Origin: Candidatus Cloacimonadota bacterium | GTDB taxonomy: Bacteria > Cloacimonadota > Cloacimonadia > Cloacimonadales > TCS61 | DNA length: 64,000 nucleotides | Assembly: GCA_021734245.1 (NCBI GenBank) | Contig: JAIPJH010000001.1 | Coordinates: 1,823 to 65,822, forward strand | Direction of reading: 5' to 3' | Shown here: piece after piece, positions 3,814 through 61,937 of the stretch | Layout of the letters: each line of letters begins with the position of its first letter | Numbering within the stretch: the first letter of the stretch is position 1 | Notes under the pieces: model-generated | What the model saw: the letters and a program-made list of their open reading frames with translations, nothing else | The model's database searches: none | What the model was told of the DNA's origin: nothing | Program-made: the position numbers and the translations under genes

Positions 3814-5346
3814 ATGAATAGATATTTTGTTCTTTCGTTTTTATTGGTTATATTTGTGTCATTATCCTTAAATTCCCAAGGCATTAGTTACAAACCCACT
3901 AATGAATCTTACGATCTAAACTGGGAAAAACCAGATCTTAGAAGTCAAACTCATCAATCAATATTATATGAGCATTCTGAGGAATTCAATTATTTCGAAG
4001 CTGTAAATGATAGTTCTTATTTTGCTTTAACGAACTCTTCAACTTTTAAAAACGCAGTAGTAAAACTTTTTACAGAGAAAAGAAATAACTCCAGATTCTA
4101 TTTTAGAAAAAAGCAATTCCCAAATTATTTTGATGAAAAACCACTGACAACAAAATTGGAAGTGAAACTTTACTGCGGAAATGATTTCGCCGGAAATGAT
4201 GAAGACAGATATTTTTTCCCTTATTACGGTTTTAATTTAAATGGTTATCTCACCAGGAGATTCCTGTTTTATGCAGATTTCTGGTCTGGGCATTATTTTG
4301 GTGATAGAGATTTTGCAGAGCAGGCAGAACTTATAAATAGTTGGACACAGAATTCCGATGACGGAAAGCAAATATTTTTGGATAATGCCCGCGGAAAAAT
4401 GCTATATTATCCAATGGATTTCTGGTCAGTAGCAATCGGTAGAGGAAAATATGAGATCGGGAATAATATTGGCGGTAGTATTATTCTAAGTGATAATTGT
4501 GTTGATTATGGTTATTTTTCCACCAAATTTGATTTTGAAAAATTCTATGTACATTTTCTGCATGGATCCTTGATTGCAGACAGCACTCTTACCGGCGAGA
4601 AAGACTATCCAGACAAGTATCTTGCTACTCATAAATTTGGCTGGAAGCCTTCCCAAAAATTAGAATTATTCTGGGGAGAGCATGTTGTTTATGGTGCTCA
4701 AGCCATAAACCCTAGTTATTTGATCCCTTTCACATATTGGCGTGGAACAGAACACAATCTTTCCGATCGAGATAATGTATTAATCTATTTTGGAACAAAT
4801 TATACTAGTAATAAATCACTGTTCTATTTTAATTACATTTTTGATGAATTATCGTTTTCCAAACTTACTGAAAGTTCATGGATGAATAAATATGCTATTC
4901 AAACCGGAATTTCAACATACCTGTCAGATACTATCAGGCTGACTGGTGAATTCACTGCTGTTCGACCCTGGATTTATACACATGAATCTTTACATGGCAA
5001 ATTCTCAAATTATGGAAGAAGTCTTGGCTTTCCGGATGGAACAAATCTTATTCAGTATGCTATGGAATGCAGCTGGAATATCAAGGATAATTTGAATATA
5101 GTAACTCATGCTTCTTATACAAGACAGGGCAGTGTGGGAAACAACTTTGCAATAAATTATAATGACAGACCCAGCGATACTGTACATTGGCTGGAAGGAA
5201 GTATAACCGATACAGCAAAAACTATTTTGATTGTTGACTGGCAGCCATTATCGCATCATCGTTTTAGAACCAGTTTGATCTCCACCAGAATCGCTGAAAA
5301 TGATATTGAGCATGAATTGATGCTGAGTTATCAAGTGCAATATTAA
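3814..5346 (+). CDS. secreted, probable outer-membrane beta-barrel protein of unknown function (possibly Wzi-like)
   Basis: 510-aa ORF with signal peptide MNRYFVLSFLLVIFVSLSLNSQG. Aromatic-rich alternating segments and a C-terminal ...LSYQVQY aromatic terminus are typical of OMP barrels. The family assignment is tentative. Confidence 0.45.
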   Translation: MNRYFVLSFLLVIFVSLSLNSQGISYKPTNESYDLNWEKPDLRSQTHQSILYEHSEEFNYFEAVNDSSYFALTNSSTFKNAVVKLFTEKRNNSRFYFRKKQFPNYFDEKPLTTKLEVKLYCGNDFAGNDEDRYFFPYYGFNLNGYLTRRFLFYADFWSGHYFGDRDFAEQAELINSWTQNSDDGKQIFLDNARGKMLYYPMDFWSVAIGRGKYEIGNNIGGSIILSDNCVDYGYFSTKFDFEKFYVHFLHGSLIADSTLTGEKDYPDKYLATHKFGWKPSQKLELFWGEHVVYGAQAINPSYLIPFTYWRGTEHNLSDRDNVLIYFGTNYTSNKSLFYFNYIFDELSFSKLTESSWMNKYAIQTGISTYLSDTIRLTGEFTAVRPWIYTHESLHGKFSNYGRSLGFPDGTNLIQYAMECSWNIKDNLNIVTHASYTRQGSVGNNFAINYNDRPSDTVHWLEGSITDTAKTILIVDWQPLSHHRFRTSLISTRIAENDIEHELMLSYQVQY

Positions 5347-5355
5347 GAAAATATT

Positions 5356-6222
5356 ATGCAGAGACTCTTGAAAAATCGTCTTTTCTTTTACTTCAAGATA
5401 GTTGTAACGATTATTATCCTGTATTTCGTGTTTCGAAAGATCGATTTAGTTGTTCTAATTAATTCCTTTAAGCAGATTTCACTTCCTGTTATATTGGCAA
5501 TGTTCATCACCACAGTTATCAAGATCTATATAGAATACAAGAACTGGGGACATTATCTTTCCATAAATCCTGACTATAAATTACGTCCTCGAGATATATT
5601 TAAATCTCACATGATCGGTCATTCTCTTAGTTTGATTATTCCCGGTGGTTTGGGAGTAGCCGGAAAAGTTTTCTTCTTGGATAATTCCAAAGGTCACACT
5701 TTTATGTCTTTGGGAGTAGAAAAATTTTTCCAAATTTGGATAAATCTGCTTTTTGCCAGTTTTGCTGCTATTTTCTATTTCAGGAAAATGAATATTCTTA
5801 TTCCGATCGTAGTATTTGTTTTTGTGATATTTCTTCCTCTTTTTATCTATTGGATCAAGCATTTGAATCGCCGAAAAAGCATAGAAAAATATTTCCGAGA
5901 ATACATCAAAATATTACCACGTGTCAGCTTTATGCAGATTACATATATGTTTATAACGATTTTTCAATACTTTGTACTTGTAAATGTATTTCTGAAGTAT
6001 CACATTTTTTCGGCAATTATCTCGGTTCCATTGATTTTGTCTTCAAATCTAATTCCGATAACTTATGCCGGTTTGGGGCTCAGGGAAAAATTTGCGATTG
6101 AAATATTCTCAAAATATGCAATTTCTTCCGAAATAGCTGTAGCTGTAACTTTAACGATTTTCTTGTTTAATTCAGTTCTTCCAGCTTTGGTAGGAATTGT
6201 TTTATTTATGAGAAAAAAATAA
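5356..6222 (+). CDS. polytopic membrane protein, flippase-like / lysylphosphatidylglycerol-synthase-TM (UPF0104) type
   Basis: 288 aa with multiple hydrophobic helices. The N-terminus (KNRLFFYFKIVVTIIILYFVFRKIDL) is typical of this family. Starts 10 nt after the preceding gene. Confidence 0.5.
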   Translation: MQRLLKNRLFFYFKIVVTIIILYFVFRKIDLVVLINSFKQISLPVILAMFITTVIKIYIEYKNWGHYLSINPDYKLRPRDIFKSHMIGHSLSLIIPGGLGVAGKVFFLDNSKGHTFMSLGVEKFFQIWINLLFASFAAIFYFRKMNILIPIVVFVFVIFLPLFIYWIKHLNRRKSIEKYFREYIKILPRVSFMQITYMFITIFQYFVLVNVFLKYHIFSAIISVPLILSSNLIPITYAGLGLREKFAIEIFSKYAISSEIAVAVTLTIFLFNSVLPALVGIVLFMRKK

Positions 6223-7257
6223 TCAGACTTTCGTTTCTTCCAGTTTTATACTAACACCTTCCAGACAGTTTCTACATACAGGAATTTGCTTTCTATCTTT
6301 TAGAATTTGATTGCGGATTTTCATGATACTTTTGCTTTTCCAGAGTTTTTCAAGTTTTTCATCTTTTACATTTCCGATCTTGAATTCACCTTCTTTATCA
6401 AAACAGCAGATCGCTACATCACCATTCCAATTAACAACGGCATTTGTCCAGATTCTGCGGCACTGGTTTTTAATCCCGTATTTCAATTCAAAATCTTCAC
6501 CTTTCACTTTATAACGTCGATATTTGGGATTTTTGGGCAGAAAATTATGAACATCCTCTTTGGAATAAATTTGGATGCTTTTAAGTTCCAGATTATCAAC
6601 TTCCAGCGCTGCAGCCATTCTTTTTATTTCATCCAATTCATGTTCGTTGTGTTTCATCACCAGAAATTGCCAGCGTAAAATGGGGTTATTTCTTCTTAGT
6701 TTCTTTCTGGCAGTTACTATTTTTTTTACATTGTTCAAAACATTTTCAAGTTTTCCATTTACGCGATATTTGTTGTAAGTCTTCTGGTTTGTTCCATCCA
6801 GTGATATTATCATCGAATCCAAACCTGAATTTACAATATCCTCTCCATCGATATCGAGATTTCCATTTGTGGAAACTAAGGTGAATAAATCGTGATCAGA
6901 TGCATATTTTACCATTTTATTGAATTCTATATTCAAATAAGGTTCTCCCTGATTCCATAAAACCACCATCAATGACTTTTTATGCACTTCATCAATGATC
7001 TTTTTAAAAACATCAAAGCTCATGAATCCTTTCTGCCTTTTCAATGTGTCATTTCCTGTTGGACAAAGTGGACATTTCAAGTTGCAGACATTCGTAGGTT
7101 CTATCATGATAATTGGTGGAAAACCCCAATAAAAAGCTCTTCTGAAAATTAGTGAAAGCAGATAAGAAAAATAAACTTTTATGACGTTTATAAATCTACG
7201 AAAAGTAAAACTCTTTCTAACAAATCTAATATTTTCTTTTAACATGAGGAACTTCAA
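6223..7257 (-). CDS. radical SAM/SPASM-domain protein with N-terminal membrane anchor
   Basis: CNLKCPLC (CxxxCxxC) cluster motif after a hydrophobic N-terminal helix. A C-terminal Cys-rich SPASM-like region reads CRRIW...GDVAICCFDKEG...CRNC. Confidence 0.8.
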   Translation of the reverse strand: MKFLMLKENIRFVRKSFTFRRFINVIKVYFSYLLSLIFRRAFYWGFPPIIMIEPTNVCNLKCPLCPTGNDTLKRQKGFMSFDVFKKIIDEVHKKSLMVVLWNQGEPYLNIEFNKMVKYASDHDLFTLVSTNGNLDIDGEDIVNSGLDSMIISLDGTNQKTYNKYRVNGKLENVLNNVKKIVTARKKLRRNNPILRWQFLVMKHNEHELDEIKRMAAALEVDNLELKSIQIYSKEDVHNFLPKNPKYRRYKVKGEDFELKYGIKNQCRRIWTNAVVNWNGDVAICCFDKEGEFKIGNVKDEKLEKLWKSKSIMKIRNQILKDRKQIPVCRNCLEGVSIKLEETKV

Positions 7258-7297
7258 AAATTATTCAATTTTGGTGTCAATATATAATAAAAAACTT

Positions 7298-28962: not shown

Positions 28963-29331
28963 CTAAAAATTCTCTGCTTTTTTAATTATACTTTTACATT
29001 TATCTTTACTTAATTCTTTGAAAATCATATCTTTGTAAGTTGGATATCTCGATTCAATATTTAAAGGTTCCAATTCATCAAGAAAATTTTTCTACTCTTC
29101 TGATAAAAAATTTTCAAGTTTGGTTGATTCTGTTAGATAAGTTAATCTATGAGCATAAGAAGGTTGCTTATCATAAGAATATACATAATAAGCTTTTAAT
29201 ATCTTTTCCACTGCTTGATGACACATAAATCCAACATATAAAAATCACTTTGTTCTGAGCATTGCTTTTGCTGTTTCAAAATCATAATTTGCTAAATCAA
29301 CCCAATATTTTACTTTTCTACTCCCACTCAA
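28963..29331 (-). pseudogene. HEPN-domain protein (toxin partner of MNT) with two in-frame stops (TGA 29247..29245, TAG 29094..29092)
   Basis: My translation: (TTG)SGSRKVKYWVDLANYDFETAKAMLRTK*FLYVGFMCHQAVEKILKAYYVYSYDKQPSYAHRLTYLTESTKLENFLSEE*KNFLDELEPLNIESRYPTYKD...AENF*. It shows the HEPN signatures (helix pair, ..SRYP..). The stop sits 1 nt before the MNT ATG. The start is uncertain. Confidence 0.7.
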
Positions 29332-31180
29332 TCGTTCCCGGCGGCTTGGTCGTCACATCATAGAGCAGATTGCCAACTCCATTTATTTTTTGAATAAGTC
29401 TTGTAAGCCGTTCAAATTCAGCAAAATCCATTTCATAAACGCTGGCAGTCATGGCATCGGTAGAACAAACCGGACGTATAACGAAAGCCTGTTTTTTATT
29501 TTGATAAAGTGGAAGCGCTACTACCGGCATTTGCCAGATCTCCGGAATGTGATCAGTTTCCTGTCGCAAAACTGCATCTACTTTCCGCAATTTATCCATG
29601 ACCGGTTTTTCCAGGAAAAGTTTCTGTAGCTTTAAATCGACCGGCTGCCAACTGAACACGATCCTGTTGACTGATATTAGTTTATTGATAGCTCTTGATG
29701 CTCCAATTCTCAGATTTTCCCATTCCGGTTTAAAATCTGACTTGAACCAAACTACCGCAGGATGATGATAGGTGCGGAAATCTCCCTGCACACCTACGCT
29801 CTTGATCGGCAGGATTTTTCCTTCTAAACCAAATTCTATTAATATCTCGTTTAGCATTTTTTCTTCTTTTTCAAAATCATCCCGAGTTGTATAAGTGTCA
29901 TCCTGAGCGGAGTCGAAGGATACACTCTTCTTTGTCGCACTTCGACTACGCTCAGTGTGACAGTCATTTATCTCTGTATCCGAGCAGATAACACGGATCG
30001 CTAAACCTGGACCGGGAAAAGGATGACGATGGACCAGTTTTTTGGGTAATCCAAGTTCTTCTCCCAGTTTGCGAACTTCATCTTTGTAGAGTTCTTTAAT
30101 CGGCTCAATCACACGTCCTTCTGCGATGAGTTTTGCAATTTCATCCACTCGATTGTGATGTGTTTTTATCTTAGCTGCTTTATCTGTAGAACCACTTTCG
30201 ATTGTATCGGGATAGATCGTTCCCTGCACCAGCATCAATTCTGCTTCTTTTTCCAATGCTGCCAGTTCCTGATTGGCAATATCAACGAAAAGTTTACCGA
30301 TTATCAAGCGTTTTGCTTCCGGTTCTACAACGCCCTTAAGTTCGTTCAGATAAAGTTCTTCCGCAGCGATGATCTTGATATTTTCGAAACCGAGTTTTTC
30401 AAAATGTTCCATGATCTCTTTGGATTCGTTCTTGCGCATGAATCCTGTGTCTACATGGATGGAAAAAATATTTTCATTCCCAACTGCCTGAATGCAAAGT
30501 TCCAGAGCAACGAGGGAATCAACTCCACCTGAAAGCAGTAGAACTAATTTTCTGCCTTTTGCTTCTTTTCGAATTTGCTGAATCAGTGTTTCTTTGAAAT
30601 TTTCTGCTTTCCAGTCGCGTTTTTCAGTACAAACTGAAATGAACTTATCCAGTATATTCAAGCCGTTTGTAGTATGTGTCACTTCCGGATGGAACTGCAC
30701 TCCAAAAAATTTCTGATCTTTTGATTCATAAGAAGCAACTTTTATCGAATCGGAATAAGCTGTGATGCGGCATGAATCAGGTAATTCTGAGACATGATCA
30801 CCATGACTCATCCAAACTGTTTGCTGAGAATCCAAACCAGAAAACAAAGCAGAATTGTTTTCGCAGTTGATCGAAGTGAATCCGTATTCTTTGTTTTCTC
30901 CGCTTTCGATCGTTCCACCCAGCATGGCAGCCAGGATTTGATGTCCGTAGCAGATTCCCAGAATTGGACTCTGAATTTCTTCGATTTCAATGTTTATACG
31001 ATACGCATCTTCAGCATTTACCGATTGCGGTCCGCCGGAAAAGATGATGCCCCCAATTTCGTCTGTAACTTCAAATTCTTCGGGGTGATAGATCTCGCTG
31101 TAAACTCCCAGGTTTCTAACTCGACGAGCAATTAGATGTGTGTATTGTCCGCCAAAATCTATAATTGCAATTTTATTCAT
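29318..31180 (-). CDS. guaA: GMP synthase (glutamine-hydrolysing), long form
   Basis: N-terminal class I GATase (GICYGHQ), ATP-PPase P-loop (SGGVDS), and C-terminus KPPGTIEWE. At 620 aa it has an extended two-part C-terminal region and an in-frame repeat-derived insert. Confidence 0.9.
   Translation of the reverse strand: MNKIAIIDFGGQYTHLIARRVRNLGVYSEIYHPEEFEVTDEIGGIIFSGGPQSVNAEDAYRINIEIEEIQSPILGICYGHQILAAMLGGTIESGENKEYGFTSINCENNSALFSGLDSQQTVWMSHGDHVSELPDSCRITAYSDSIKVASYESKDQKFFGVQFHPEVTHTTNGLNILDKFISVCTEKRDWKAENFKETLIQQIRKEAKGRKLVLLLSGGVDSLVALELCIQAVGNENIFSIHVDTGFMRKNESKEIMEHFEKLGFENIKIIAAEELYLNELKGVVEPEAKRLIIGKLFVDIANQELAALEKEAELMLVQGTIYPDTIESGSTDKAAKIKTHHNRVDEIAKLIAEGRVIEPIKELYKDEVRKLGEELGLPKKLVHRHPFPGPGLAIRVICSDTEINDCHTERSRSATKKSVSFDSAQDDTYTTRDDFEKEEKMLNEILIEFGLEGKILPIKSVGVQGDFRTYHHPAVVWFKSDFKPEWENLRIGASRAINKLISVNRIVFSWQPVDLKLQKLFLEKPVMDKLRKVDAVLRQETDHIPEIWQMPVVALPLYQNKKQAFVIRPVCSTDAMTASVYEMDFAEFERLTRLIQKINGVGNLLYDVTTKPPGTIEWE
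29895..29963. repeat. 69-bp imperfect palindromic element embedded in frame in guaA
   Basis: Arms GTGTCATCCTGAGCGGAGTCGAAGGA and CACTTCGACTACGCTCAGTGTGACAG. Related copies at 34414..34442 and 61711..61740. Confidence 0.8.
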
Positions 31181-31207: not shown

Positions 31208-31338
31208 CTCCCCTTTGTAAGGGGAGGGCGAGGGGTTTTGGCGGATAAATAACCAATCTTGATTTTATAAAACCCCCTCCCAGTGGAATATCCACAGGAT
31301 TCCACGGGATAAATTTTGTCCCCCTTCTAAAGGGGGAC
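31208..31338. repeat. composite GC-rich four-hairpin repeat (family R2), copy a
   Basis: CTCCCCTT-TGTA-AGGGGAG; GAGGGGTTTTG...AAAACCCCCTC; GTGGAAT...ATTCCAC; GTCCCCCTT-CTA-AAGGGGGAC. Near-identical to 38109..38239. Confidence 0.85.
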
Positions 31339-31926
31339 TTTTTGCGTCTTTGTGATCTTTGCGGTTAAGATTTCTCTTAAGCACTTACTATAAAATTCAT
31401 GTTCCACTTTCAAGCCCCTCTTTTCCACTTCTTCCAGAGAATTACAACCGTTCAAATCCACAGCTCTCTGCCTGATGATCTCGCCGGTATCAAGTCCTTC
31501 ATCAACAAAATGAACAGTGATTTTAGTCTCCTTTATATTATTTTCCCAAGCCCATTCATAGCCGTGTAAACCTTGATGTTCGGTAGTATCAGCAGGATGG
31601 ATATTAATAATTTTTCTGGGAAATTCCTGGATGATCTCGACAGGTAAAACCTTCATATAACCTGCTAATACAATAAAATCTGGTTTCTCCGATTTCAACC
31701 ATTTCAATAAAAGCGAATTATATGTTTTCTTCTTCTTTCCTTTGGATGGAATGCAATGAGTTCTGATACCCATTTCATTAGCTTTTTGCAGTCCAGGTGC
31801 TTCAGATTTATTGGAAAAGACAGTTTGGATTTCGCAAACATCTTTCAGAATTCCAGACTGAATATTTTTGGCAATGGCAAACATATTGCTGCCACGACCA
31901 CTGATCATGATAATGATTTTATTCAT
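31327..31926 (-). CDS. purN: phosphoribosylglycinamide formyltransferase
   Basis: 199 aa, reading IIIMISGRGSNMFAI...INIHPA. The last three codons and the stop lie inside a repeat hairpin. Confidence 0.9.
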   Translation of the reverse strand: MNKIIIMISGRGSNMFAIAKNIQSGILKDVCEIQTVFSNKSEAPGLQKANEMGIRTHCIPSKGKKKKTYNSLLLKWLKSEKPDFIVLAGYMKVLPVEIIQEFPRKIINIHPADTTEHQGLHGYEWAWENNIKETKITVHFVDEGLDTGEIIRQRAVDLNGCNSLEEVEKRGLKVEHEFYSKCLREILTAKITKTQKVPL

Positions 31927-31971: not shown

Positions 31972-32358
31972 TTAATCTATTATATTAGGAATCCTCTCGA
32001 AATCAAATCCTTTTCTATTATTGGGGAAATTGATAATTACACCTAATTTATAACCAGTTGCTTTTAGATAATTAAATAGCTGTGCTTTGTGAAATTTATT
32101 AATTTGATTTTCACATTTTAGTTCGATTATAATTTTCTCATCAATGATTAAGTCCGCTTTATAATCCGCAATAACTTCACCTCGATAAACAATTTGAATA
32201 AGTTTCTGAGATTCAACAAAAAAATCAAGTAATTGGAGTTCAATTACTAAAGCTCTTTCATAAACTTTCTCTAAAAAGCCATTCCCAAGTCTTTTCCGAA
32301 CTTCAATACAAGCTTTTTTAATCTTGTAACACTCATCCATATAAATTAAGCTTTTCAT
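31972..32358 (-). CDS. GxxExxY-family protein (PD-(D/E)XK-like)
   Basis: 128 aa with GNGFLEKVYERALVIEL, the GxxExxY motif. Confidence 0.75.
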   Translation of the reverse strand: MKSLIYMDECYKIKKACIEVRKRLGNGFLEKVYERALVIELQLLDFFVESQKLIQIVYRGEVIADYKADLIIDEKIIIELKCENQINKFHKAQLFNYLKATGYKLGVIINFPNNRKGFDFERIPNIID

Positions 32359-33547: not shown

Positions 33548-34840
33548 TTAAAATAATTTTTTTCTTTTACCAATATCTTTTCGATAAAACATATCATCAA
33601 AAAAGTAATTATTCACCTTCTCATAAGCTTTTTGGATAGCATTATCCAGAGTTTCACCATGAGAAACAATATTTAAAACGCGACCACCTGAAGTTACAAT
33701 TTCACCATCCATTTTTTTTGTTCCGGCATGAAAGATCAATTCATCAGCTTTTTCCAAACCACAAATTGGATAACCTTTTTTGTAAGCTTTGGGATAACCG
33801 CCGGAAACCAGTACCACATCCACAAAAAAACCAGCGTTGAACTCCATCTGATAATCTTTTAATGAACCATCAAAGCAGCTTAAAACCAGTCTCAGCAAAT
33901 CACTTTTCATCGCTGGCAGCACAACTTCAGTTTCCGGATCACCCAAGCGGACATTGTATTCCAAAACCTCGGGTCCTTTTTCTGTGATCATCAAGCCAAA
34001 ATAAACTATCCCTTTGAAATTGAAACCTTCTGCTTTTATACCTTTCATGGTCGGAAGAATTACATCCTTCTCGATTTGCTTCTTAAGTTCTTCATTGTAA
34101 AATGGAACCGGGCAGAAAGCTCCCATACCGCCGGTATTGGGTCCTTTATCGCCATCCAAAAGTTGTTTATGATCTTGCGAAGGCAGAAGAAGCTGATAAT
34201 TTTCTCCATCTGTAAAAGCCAGAATAGATAACTCATCACCGATCAGTTTTTCTTCGATCAGATAAGATGCATCTTCCCCGTATTTGGAATGAATTTCCTG
34301 CAGAGCAGATTTTGCTTCTTCCAGTTTTGAGCAGACAAAAACTCCCTTTCCTGCTGCTAAACCATCATATTTTATTACACAATTACCATTGAGCTTTTTA
34401 ATTACTGACAAGCTGTCTCCTTCGACTCCGCTCAGGATGACATTTTTTTTATTTTTTTGTGCTTTTTTATGGCAATTTCCAAATTCCCAGAAATCTGCAG
34501 TAGCAACTCCATATTTCTGCATGAATTTTTTAGCAAAGATCTTGGATCCTTCCAGTTGAGCTCCGGCTTTATCCGGCCCAAAAACCTTAACCGGTGTTTC
34601 GGCAAAATAGTCTACAATTCCGTTTGCCAGAGGATCTTCCGGCCCCACAAAGATCAGTTCGATCAATTCTTGAGCACAAAATTCCTTGATATCTGCAAAA
34701 TCATTTACATCAATTTTTACATTATTTTTCGTTCCACCATTTCCTGGTAGAACATACACTTTATCAGCTAAATCGCTTTGTTCCAATTTCCAGGCGATGG
34801 CATGTTCCCTGCCACCAGAACCGATAACTGCAATATTCAT
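33548..34840 (-). CDS. purD: phosphoribosylamine-glycine ligase
   Basis: MNIAVIGSGGREHAIAWKL start (ATG after AGAGG; the track starts 6 codons upstream). ATP-grasp DGLAAGKGV motif. Carries a repeat-derived in-frame insert. Confidence 0.9.
   Translation of the reverse strand: MNIAVIGSGGREHAIAWKLEQSDLADKVYVLPGNGGTKNNVKIDVNDFADIKEFCAQELIELIFVGPEDPLANGIVDYFAETPVKVFGPDKAGAQLEGSKIFAKKFMQKYGVATADFWEFGNCHKKAQKNKKNVILSGVEGDSLSVIKKLNGNCVIKYDGLAAGKGVFVCSKLEEAKSALQEIHSKYGEDASYLIEEKLIGDELSILAFTDGENYQLLLPSQDHKQLLDGDKGPNTGGMGAFCPVPFYNEELKKQIEKDVILPTMKGIKAEGFNFKGIVYFGLMITEKGPEVLEYNVRLGDPETEVVLPAMKSDLLRLVLSCFDGSLKDYQMEFNAGFFVDVVLVSGGYPKAYKKGYPICGLEKADELIFHAGTKKMDGEIVTSGGRVLNIVSHGETLDNAIQKAYEKVNNYFFDDMFYRKDIGKRKKLF
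34414..34442. repeat. single arm of the GTCATCCTGAGCGGAGTCGAAGGA palindromic family, in frame in purD
   Basis: The reverse complement of 34414..34442 contains GTCATCCTGAGCGGAGTCGAAGGA, identical over 24 nt to the guaA copy. It is translated as VILSGVEGDS. Confidence 0.8.
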
Positions 34841-34915
34841 AAAAACCTCTTGTAGCAACTAACAAAACTAACTAAACGAACTTTTTTAGTTCGAATTTGT
34901 TCGATTTGTTCGCTG

Positions 34916-53725: not shown

Positions 53726-53840
53726 TATAAATTACTCCTCTGTCCCGGCGTAGTTTAATGAAGCCGGATAATTTTTTTAGCAACGAACAAAACAAACAAA
53801 GACGAAATCATTTTCGATTTTATATTCCGATATGATTTCA

Positions 53841-53910
53841 GTCCCCCTTCATAAGGGGGAACAAAATTTATCCCGTGGAATCCTGTGGATATTCCACAGG
53901 GAGGGGGTTT
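53841..53910. repeat. partial family R2 repeat, copy c, inverted relative to copies a and b
   Basis: GTCCCCCTT-CATA-AGGGGGA, then CCGTGGAATCCTGTGGATATTCCACAGGGAGGGGGTTT. Confidence 0.8.
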
Positions 53911-61455: not shown

Positions 61456-61710
61456 AATTCCTCCGCTTTCATGGTGAAAATTTTAATCTTTTACTATTCT
61501 AAAATCAATTATTTAAATATTTGTGTCAAATGAAATATGAAGGCAGGTAGGAATAAGAGAAGTAAAGCTGCAAGGTTTTCACGATATTCATCGTGTGTAA
61601 AGCCAAAAGTGAACCTCAGAAAGACGATTTTTGGAGTTAATCGATTCTTCGATTTTAAGCGACAAAGTTGCTTGCAATTTTAATTTATTAATCCAGCCAT
61701 ATCATTCGAT

Positions 61711-61796
61711 ACGATGCTTCGCGTCACTCAGGATGACACGGTTTTTCTCGTCATTGCGAGTGCTTCTGGCAATATATACTACTTCGAAGCAATCTC
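61711..61796. repeat. intergenic copies of GTCATCCTGAG... and GTCATTGCGAG...CGAAGCAATC palindromic-repeat arms
   Basis: The reverse complement of 61711..61740 reads CGTGTCATCCTGAGTGACGCGAAGCATCG. 61750..61796 contains GTCATTGCGAGTG...CGAAGCAATCTC. This is the source of spurious ORF 61631..61840. Confidence 0.65.
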
Positions 61797-61937
61797 AGAG
61801 AATGAGAAGTATATCTAAAAGTTCAAAAAAGCAGAATTAAAACTGTCCCATGATTAACTCAAGAGTTAATTATTTAATTGCATTTTGTAGCTTTTCAATC
61901 ATATCGGTTTTTTCCCAGGTAAATTCTATATCGTATT

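Follow-up and report, generated by a model that had tools for sequence, protein, structure and literature searches.

The DNA examined here is a window of 64,000 nucleotides (64 kb) from contig JAIPJH010000001.1 of a Candidatus Cloacimonadota bacterium (assembly GCA_021734245.1). Its guaA gene, part of a purine gene cluster, contains a palindrome at 29895-29963, which is an inverted doublet of two hairpin units of about 30 nt. In brief, the features of the guaA locus are:

29318-31180, minus strand: guaA, host of the doublet, encoding a glutamine-hydrolysing GMP synthase (620 aa) of the long, eukaryote-like type.
29891-29971, minus strand: net insertion in guaA, 81 nt or 27 codons, stop-free, residues 404-430, INDCHTERSRSATKKSVSFDSAQDDTY.
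29934-29963, minus strand: unit B, the 5' arm in mRNA sense, CTGTCA-CACT-GAGCGTAGTCGA-AGTG-CGAC, stem CACT/AGTG.
29921-29937, no strand: spacer of 17 nt between the two 24-nt cores, TACACTCTTCTTTGTCG on the plus strand.
29895-29924, plus strand: unit A, the antisense arm in the mRNA, GTGTCA-TCCT-GAGCGGAGTCGA-AGGA-TACA, stem TCCT/AGGA.

A Pfam search of GuaA returned the GATase, NAD_synthase (ATP-pyrophosphatase) and GMP_synt_C domains. The closest solved relative is human GMPS (2vxo), which aligns over the full length with E = 3.8e-113, and the orthologues found by protein search carry the annotation Cloacimonadota GMP synthase.

The arms of the palindrome extend over 40 nt each (29879-29918 and 29940-29979) and are 75% complementary. 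In the central 22 nt they are mismatched at three positions, as had been described in an initial annotation made from the sequence alone. Folded as RNA (91 nt) the element reaches -35.7 kcal/mol, with z = -5.6 and an equally good fold in 0 of 200 shuffles, which bears out the strong mRNA hairpin expected there; as DNA it reaches -18 to -20 kcal/mol (z -4.4 to -5.2). With R1, a covariance model of the unit, unit A scores 36.6 bits (E = 2.4e-8) and unit B 35.6 bits (E = 4.8e-8). The GC content of the 81-nt insertion is 0.46 versus 0.373 for the window, and that of the element sequence 0.46-0.57 versus a background of 0.37. Four of the six frames are open (no stops) through the element. The guaA frame runs through it as ...INDCHTERSRSATKKSVSFDSAQDDTY..., flanked by PFPGPGLAIRV and KSVGVQGDFRTY, so the read-through between these motifs proposed in the initial annotation agrees with the translation.

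An AlphaFold2 model of GuaA, with 19 orthologues as input, has a mean predicted local distance difference test (pLDDT) score of 79.5. Residues 409-431 are modelled as coil with pLDDT 33-37 and are directly followed by a helix, 433-448, with pLDDT 94; the inserted coil sits between two well-modelled parts. The inserted residues are thereby predicted to be disordered, and the mapping onto a structure suggested at the outset places them in a predicted unstructured loop (pLDDT <50). In the alignment with 2vxo the same linker is length-variable in human GMPS.

Contig JAIPHW010000001.1 of GCA_021735025.1, a metagenome-assembled genome of Candidatus Cloacimonetes, matches the window with 100% identity. 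An identical 620-aa GuaA is encoded on four contigs, including independent Logan assemblies of SRR12088346 and other sequencing runs, and the element is also present in guaA of 3-4 other assemblies (NCBI, ENA, JGI). Because the exact 620-aa protein recurs in independent assemblies, the element is not an assembly artefact, a concern that the initial annotation had raised.

A second gene of the same purine cluster, purD, lies 2.4 kb upstream of guaA and carries the unit in single form. The features outside guaA are:

33548-34858, minus strand: purD, encoding phosphoribosylamine-glycine ligase (Pfam GARS_N, GARS_A, GARS_C), host of a single unit.
34406-34441, minus strand: insertion in purD, 36 nt or 12 codons, VILSGVEGDSLS: GTCATCCTGAGCGGAGTCGAAGGAGACAGCTTGTCA.
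61711-61739, minus strand: possible distant relative of the unit, GTCATCCTGAGTGACGCGAAGCATC, not a confident member.

The deposited PurD has 430 aa, starts at the ATG of MNIAVIG and is a 100% match to P0123. The insertion consists of one unit plus a 12-nt tail, with GTCA at both borders. The unit itself (34414-34443, 35.2 bits with R1) is translated as VILSGVEG. The 12 residues lie where the ATP-grasp domain begins, in a variable linker, and are missing from PurD of E. coli and of the Cloacimonadota loci L001, L003 and L124. The exact 24-mer GTCATCCTGAGCGGAGTCGAAGGA is found twice in the window, at 29897-29920 (+) and 34418-34441 (-), with 0 expected from shuffles. The identity of the 24-nt core in purD, which had been claimed before, is thus real, but the purD copy is a single unit and not the palindrome of guaA.

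The guaA and purD units are the three confident units in the window, and all of them are intragenic. The candidate at 61711-61739, initially taken for a diverged copy (61711-61740), does lie in intergenic DNA (61456-61937), but at only 9.2 bits and E = 2.8 with R1 it can count as a distant relative at most. The window also gives no ground for speaking of an intergenic-type repeat: three of three confident copies are intragenic, and the only intergenic copy comes from the relative L250, just past purD (1490-1519). We observed that the window region 61711-61790 holds two adjacent hairpins of unit-like style, GTCATCCTGAGTGACGCGAAGCATC on the minus strand and GTCATTGCGAGTGCTTCTGGCAAT on the plus strand. 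They have the GTCAT head of the unit but another stem and loop, which suggests that this genome has sister families of GTCAT-headed hairpins.

The polarity of the guaA event is that of an insertion. We collected 113 Cloacimonadota GuaA sequences with both landmark motifs, PGLAIRV and LPIKSVGVQGD, and in 98 of these the linker is 32 aa long and lacks the element; the absence of the 27 residues from close orthologues, which the initial annotation had left to an alignment, is thereby established. The linker is 59-63 aa long in the window, P0009, P0026 and P0044, where the surplus residues are the same element. A fifth filled allele is the reverse-complement half of the chimeric locus L126; it has one more unit nested in it and keeps the reading frame. 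Five alleles carry the element. A neighbour-joining tree, built from GuaA minus the linker, puts the filled alleles in four separate places, each with empty sisters. In other lineages the same site holds unrelated inserts, of 47 aa in P0001 and 14 aa in P0002, and the former includes a tandem pair of another small palindrome.

Recurrence is seen at the purD site as well. Unit-derived peptides are present in 13 of 120 PurD orthologues, all at residues ~125-145. They include singlets in the VILSGVEG frame and heterodimers read as CH.ERSR...SFDSAQDD, in which the stem of the first arm is TGGT/ACCA in L250 and L252 and TATT/AATA in L251. Because such different forms cannot share one event, the PurD linker has been hit repeatedly.

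In-frame single units were also seen in other Cloacimonadota: in the valyl-tRNA synthetase gene valS of L103 (4206-6890), where KESVILSGVEGARTLK stands just before the VATTRPET motif, and in L019 (245-1933), where IPLILSGVEGQSS is part of the C-terminal sorting domain of a secreted protein. Composites of a unit within a unit occur in three independent genes or alleles, with the frame kept in each: L126 2825-2908 (guaA), L252 ~2246-2323 (purD) and P0127 residues ~134-150 (PurD). Here a reverse-oriented unit plus ~9 nt (TCCTTCGACTnnGCTCAGGACArGCTTrr) replaces CGNAG between GAG and TCGA in the loop of another unit. Such nested units may reflect either loops as a preferred target or a composite variant derived by template switching. 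The metagenome contig L126, 1-3229, is itself a fold-back chimera with a junction near 2600: a forward guaA allele runs into another, 79% identical one in reverse complement. Both alleles carry the palindromic element, and the aberrant C-terminus of P0026 is due to this chimera.

The repeat unit is 30 nt long and has a (T)GTCA head, a covarying stem of 4-6 bp and an invariant 12-nt loop, GAGCGNAGTCGA; the invariant core is GAGCG-AG-CGA. A scan of one genome per species with the query TCCTGAGCGNAGTCGAAGGA found this exact 20-nt core in at least 120 genome contigs of many phyla. Among the matches listed, to which the phylum range refers, are Patescibacteria, Bacteroidota, Acidobacteriota, Alphaproteobacteria, Planctomycetota, Chloroflexota, Verrucomicrobiota, Firmicutes, Myxococcota and Cloacimonadota. 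Within the Cloacimonadota lineage and far outside it the motif occurs as a repeat of several copies, a result in line with the copy count proposed earlier. The five bases 5' of TCCT are mostly T/C-G-T-C-A in 139 cross-phylum copies; Henriciella has the head variant CCTC-A, and all three window units start TGTC-A. Of 123 cross-phylum units, 21 (~17%) lie within long open frames and ~83% do not.

Covariation was scored on all GAGCG.AG.CGA cores in the retrieved DNA, minus the two stem types that had been chosen by the search patterns, which gave 74 distinct units. The stem scores 0.573, whereas shuffles score 0.235, with 0 of 500 as high as the stem, and slid partners at most 0.196. Each of the four inner stem pairs shows 8-35 double changes, and the compensatory variants include CCCT/AGGG, TGCT/AGCA, GTCT/AGAC, GGCT/AGCC and TAGT/ACTA. 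Since the flanking four-base blocks covary, the unit is a small stem-loop whose 12-nt loop does not vary. An outer stem around the 20-nt core was rejected: without gaps the flanks pair no better than mismatched controls do, and only the inner 4-6 bp covary. A hammerhead ribozyme was also rejected; when the core was compared by eye with the consensus CUGANGA...GAA, G8 and A9 were missing. Rfam gave nothing meaningful for 29700-30150 (E-value scan) or for the whole window (gathering scan).

A doublet scan of metagenomes, with a CACT/AGTG-type arm facing a TCCT/AGGA-type arm, found at least three genome-specific doublet families, with 71, 42 and 7 copies among the 120 matches listed. Each family has its own outer flanks and spacers. 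Because doublets with these two arm types form genome-specific families of high copy number, the two-arm heterodimer in guaA is a standard form of the repeat. An exhaustive phmmer search of 1.84 billion representatives with the doublet peptide gave a single chance match, P0122. A 113-aa composite of the doublet's four open frames had P0121 as its single, weak match in a protein search. P0121 is a partial membrane protein (167 aa) of Candidatus Peregrinibacteria (candidate phyla radiation, CPR) with an in-frame tail-to-tail doublet of units, ...LLCRTSTTLSVTQNQPTECHPERSRRM..., so Cloacimonadota are not the only bacteria with doublets in coding sequence. Full-text searches of the literature found no paper on the motif or its peptides, nor on Cloacimonas repeats.

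We consider it likely that the element is a hairpin doublet of the repetitive extragenic palindromic (REP) type, non-coding DNA of the selfish kind, that was inserted into the coding sequence of guaA and is tolerated there. The initial annotation had proposed an element like a REP or a miniature inverted-repeat transposable element (MITE) within coding sequence, tolerated as a surface loop, and the orthologue, repeat, AlphaFold2 and hairpin results support it. Movement of the units would take place as hairpins of single-stranded DNA, by means of either an enzyme of the HUH/Y1 type acting in trans or template switching during replication. The doublet is a dimer with two slightly different arms, comparable to REP doublets forming hairpins (REPINs) and bacterial interspersed mosaic elements (BIMEs). 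It would have persisted in guaA as exactly 27 codons with no stop in the frame read, in a length-variable, predicted-disordered linker that directly follows the ATP-pyrophosphatase domain's PFPGPGLAIRV motif. Because this linker is variable and predicted to be disordered, we propose that the enzyme tolerates the doublet as an extra surface loop. The host protein would stay active despite the insertion. In purD a single unit adds 12 residues to a variable linker.

How far the element has diverged in comparison with its host gene bears on this. Nucleotide identities between the window and three other filled alleles are:

L001: gene 0.737 (third positions 0.529), element 0.952 (third positions 0.964).
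L126: gene 0.738 (third positions 0.492), element 0.940 (third positions 0.964).
L003: gene 0.689 (third positions 0.472), element 0.810 (third positions 0.857).

In L003, the most distant allele, 0 of 50 nt differ in the arms and 5 of 17 in the spacer (Fisher p = 6e-4); the spacer is identical at 16 of 17 positions in L001 and L126 and at 12 of 17 in L003. The flanks of the element are raised in the comparison with L001 (0.85 and 0.82 versus 0.74 gene-wide) and not raised in that with L126, as might be left by a recombination tract surrounding the element in the window-L001 pair.

A number of results weigh against a tolerated insertion of selfish DNA. The element is 94-95% identical (third positions 96%) in genes that are 74% identical (third positions ~50%), and being far less diverged than the gene, it is too conserved for purely neutral junk. 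A doublet with the guaA spacer was found only in guaA, both among the doublet matches listed and in the protein searches; therefore one origin followed by spread fits better than a freely hopping doublet. Single units fold weakly, at -2.4 to -3.5 kcal/mol and no better than shuffles, so the case for the hairpin is one of covariation and not of energy. No protein family is linked to the unit: in an all-against-all comparison of 4167 open reading frames (ORFs), no cluster occurred in more than 9 of the 120 loci listed. No homologue of a REP-associated tyrosine transposase (RAYT) was found in the window by tblastn with two Cloacimonadota RAYT-like proteins (none below E = 0.02). No transposase is linked to the unit in these loci. 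No unambiguous target-site duplication was found at guaA or purD, and only three units were found in the 64 kb.

The near-identity of the element may be due to constraint on the arms, to homogenisation by other copies or to recent recombinational spread. We read the alignments as pointing to a single origin in guaA or a small number of them, the arms being kept by recognition or by conversion, and to some lateral spread by homologous recombination. Repeated site-specific insertion into guaA is a possible alternative to few origins.

The same conservation is also an argument for a different explanation, in which the hairpin is retained for a function at the nucleic-acid level, in mRNA or DNA, and is a selected element, not a passenger. 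It could act as a translational pause between domains, as a processing or stability signal in the pur operon, or at the DNA level. We think this unlikely as a replacement for the tolerated insertion, although the two can coexist, since such a function is compatible with a selfish origin. A retained function would account for the third-position identity of 96% in the element versus ~50% in the gene and for the arms without differences from L003 (0 of 50, versus 5 of 17 in the spacer, p = 6e-4). The strong mRNA hairpin (-35.7 kcal/mol, z = -5.6), the 12-nt loop that is invariant across phyla while the stems covary, and the occupation of two genes of one purine cluster in the same orientation also fit it. 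However, most orthologues, including the closest, lack the element in apparently normal genes, and elsewhere the same linker holds unrelated insertions (P0001, P0002). Units lie in either orientation, in intergenic DNA as well as inside unrelated genes, no Rfam family matches, and the conservation of the arms is explained equally well by recognition by a copying machinery or by gene conversion.

That the 27 residues are an ancestral linker, deleted in most Cloacimonadota, is very improbable. Filled alleles do occur in both major clades of the guaA tree, and the motifs flanking the element are common to the window, L001 and L126. This history would, however, require many independent exact 81-nt deletions to give the uniform 32-aa linker of 98 orthologues. 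It also has to contend with a segment that is built from a repeat identical in purD and in many phyla, has a GC content of 0.46-0.57 versus 0.37 for the genome and has diverged much less than its host gene.

The least probable explanation, an assembly or chimera artefact or an intron- or intein-like segment removed before the mature protein, draws on the L126 fold-back chimera of two guaA alleles and on the fact that palindromes can confuse assemblers, but fails on the identical 620-aa gene in independent assemblies of different sequencing runs, on the element in 3-4 other assemblies from NCBI, ENA and JGI, on a length (27 aa) far too short for an intein and without the conserved intein end residues, on the lack of an Rfam match for an intron or ribozyme, and on the frame kept in all alleles, including the one with a nested extra unit, which is expected only if the segment is translated.

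Other repeats and small genes were noticed as well. The relatives L001 (6595-7134) and L003 (8417-8956) have a Y1_Tnp (RAYT-like) gene of 179 aa, in which the motifs HNHYHLIV and NYLWxNPVKH occur and which is bordered on both sides by another hairpin repeat, GGAGTGCAATAnCCGTGnTATTGC and AAAATATCGCGGATATTTTAyTCCAAAG, in a REPtron-like arrangement. In L001 its flanks are 6340-6594 and 7135-7291 and it lies directly downstream of guaA; no homologue was found in the window.

A small PDDEXK_3 (GxxExxY) gene is present in the window at 31972-32358 (-), in L001 at 795-1181, in L003 at 2299-2694, in L124 at 2339-2722 and twice in L252, at 1443-1829 and 4977-5363. Its position in the intergenic DNA of the purine cluster varies among Cloacimonadota, a behaviour like that of a mobile cassette. 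The flanks in L001 and L003 have repeats of the form cttcgcgtcttcgcgatctttgcggt. We rejected the idea that the doublet is a footprint of these genes, the flanks of which carry other repeats and not the unit.

A 71-nt repeat has two copies, 94% identical, at 31270-31339 (-) in the purN-guaA intergenic region and 22 kb away at 53840-53910 (+). It includes two hairpins, of which the first is GTCCCCCTTnAnAAGGGGGA and the second GGAATCCTGTGGATATTCC. The first recurs in near-identical form as GTCCCCCTTGACAGGGGGA, two copies of which make up much of the unrelated 47-aa insert at the same guaA site in L124. The Cloacimonadota GuaA homologues P0105, P0110 and P0119 are 788-806 aa long and contain Formyl_trans_N (PF00551), which looks like a purN-guaA fusion of the neighbouring genes.

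The tolerated insertion of a REP-type doublet implies that REP-type hairpins colonise coding sequence beyond Rickettsia and Proteobacteria. Filled and empty alleles of guaA and purD coexist in public metagenomes, so that insertion, loss and recombination can be traced directly. The units explain odd peptides such as VILSGVEG, CHPERSRR, SFDSAQDD and PSTSLRMT in annotated proteins and spurious ORFs, and they can cause fold-back misassemblies, as in L126. A more far-reaching reading, which we put forward tentatively and regard as rather doubtful, is that of a domain-spanning hairpin family, propagated by common bacterial machinery without a transposase of its own, a very old and still active class of mobile hairpin. 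Such units would integrate site-specifically, also into the loops of other units (L126 guaA, L252 purD and the P0127 composites), and would repeatedly seed surface loops in essential enzymes, their arms staying nearly unchanged while the silent sites of the host saturate. If true, a class of mobile DNA hairpin not described so far would serve as a general source of insertions in proteins.

Events of this kind have been described before, for the Rickettsia palindromic elements (RPEs) and other intragenic REP repeats. What goes beyond the published picture is the phylum range of the loop, the repeated use of two linkers, and the arms frozen as silent sites saturate.

Several known systems can be compared with the unit. 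An intein or self-splicing intron does not fit: the segment is 27 aa long, has no Rfam match at threshold and keeps the frame. MITEs derive from insertion sequences (IS), have terminal inverted repeats and defined target-site duplications, and can form in-frame fusions; intragenic examples are ERIC, Correia/NEMIS and the Coxiella QMITEs (PMC10969869). The doublet resembles them as a small non-autonomous inverted-repeat element able to fuse in frame with host ORFs, and it has inverted arms. It differs in that no parent IS was found among the 120 loci listed and in that no clear duplication was seen. The short direct repeats ATGAC (guaA) and GTCA (purD) cannot be distinguished from the unit's own head, because they overlap it.

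RPE-1 is ~100-150 bp long, is restricted to Rickettsia and encodes a conserved peptide (Ogata et al. 2000, as reviewed in PMC10969869). Both RPE-1 and the guaA element are palindromic selfish DNA, in frame in housekeeping genes and translated at sites where the fold tolerates them. The guaA element differs in being 69-81 bp long, in consisting of two 30-nt units of a cross-phylum family and in belonging to a free-living anaerobe lineage.

REPINs are extragenic and genus-specific and are tied to a RAYT gene that is present in single copy and has the same REPs on its flanks (PMC3116915; PMC3337134). As in REPINs and BIMEs, two inverted REPs with a short spacer form one long hairpin and singlets occur too, and as in the E. 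coli BIMEs with their Y and Z REPs there are two slightly different arm types. Unlike REPINs, the guaA doublet is intragenic, the window contains no RAYT, and the core of the unit is common to many phyla. No cognate RAYT flanked by the same REP was found in the window; the RAYT-like genes of the relatives are bordered by a repeat different from the unit. Measured against the properties of REPs listed in PMC12306157, the unit is a stem-loop (covariation 0.573; doublet z = -5.6) and has a common consensus with an invariant core within the size range of ~14-40 nt (30 nt). As to copy number, there are three confident units in the 64-kb window and more in relatives. It departs from an extragenic location, three of three confident window units being inside guaA or purD.

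A close likeness is that to the CGTC-type REPs. Terminal CGTC and GTAG tags divide REPs into two superfamilies, of which the CGTC superfamily includes Neisseria dRS3 (Di Nocera et al. 2013, PMC3733652). CGTC-type REPs have TGTC and CCTC tag variants and stems beginning A-T, form inverted dimers that are often hetero-dimers, and occur in five phyla without a dedicated transposase (PMC3733652). Their intragenic dimers encode 20-30 aa, including those of Rickettsia RPE-4 and RPE-6 and of tRNA synthetases (PMC3733652). In-frame dimers of that length are on record for GTAG-tagged REPs too. With such dimers published, and with the guaA and purD linkers hit again and again in Cloacimonadota, the initial description of the intragenic copies as unusual was overstated.

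The unit has the end tag of this superfamily: an unpaired (C/T)GTC head and an A-T stem start (TGTC-AT-CCT...AGG-AT), the AT...AT start being present in the TCCT-type unit. It likewise forms singlets and abundant inverted dimers, often heterodimers, in several phyla and without a dedicated transposase, and it has in-frame intragenic copies of which the dimers encode 20-30 aa. The translated heads are alike in kind, VI..., CH... and ...DD/...MT here, compared with the published peptides VIPAKAGI, CHSRESGNP, DSRFRGND and IPAFAGMT (PMC3733652), but none of the intragenic CGTC-type peptides in that paper matches the unit. Stem, loop and tail differ: CGTC-type REPs have stems of 8-9 bp, loops of 4-5 nt and a CCA tail, whereas the unit has a stem of 4-6 bp, a loop of 12 nt and no CCA. 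Cloacimonadota lie outside the five reported phyla, and the phylum range of the unit is much wider. The wide conservation of the 12-nt loop without a linked transposase bears on the question of how CGTC-type REPs are mobilised (PMC3733652). We suggest that the element is perhaps a new family of a known, REP-type kind, in a new phylum and in new host genes.

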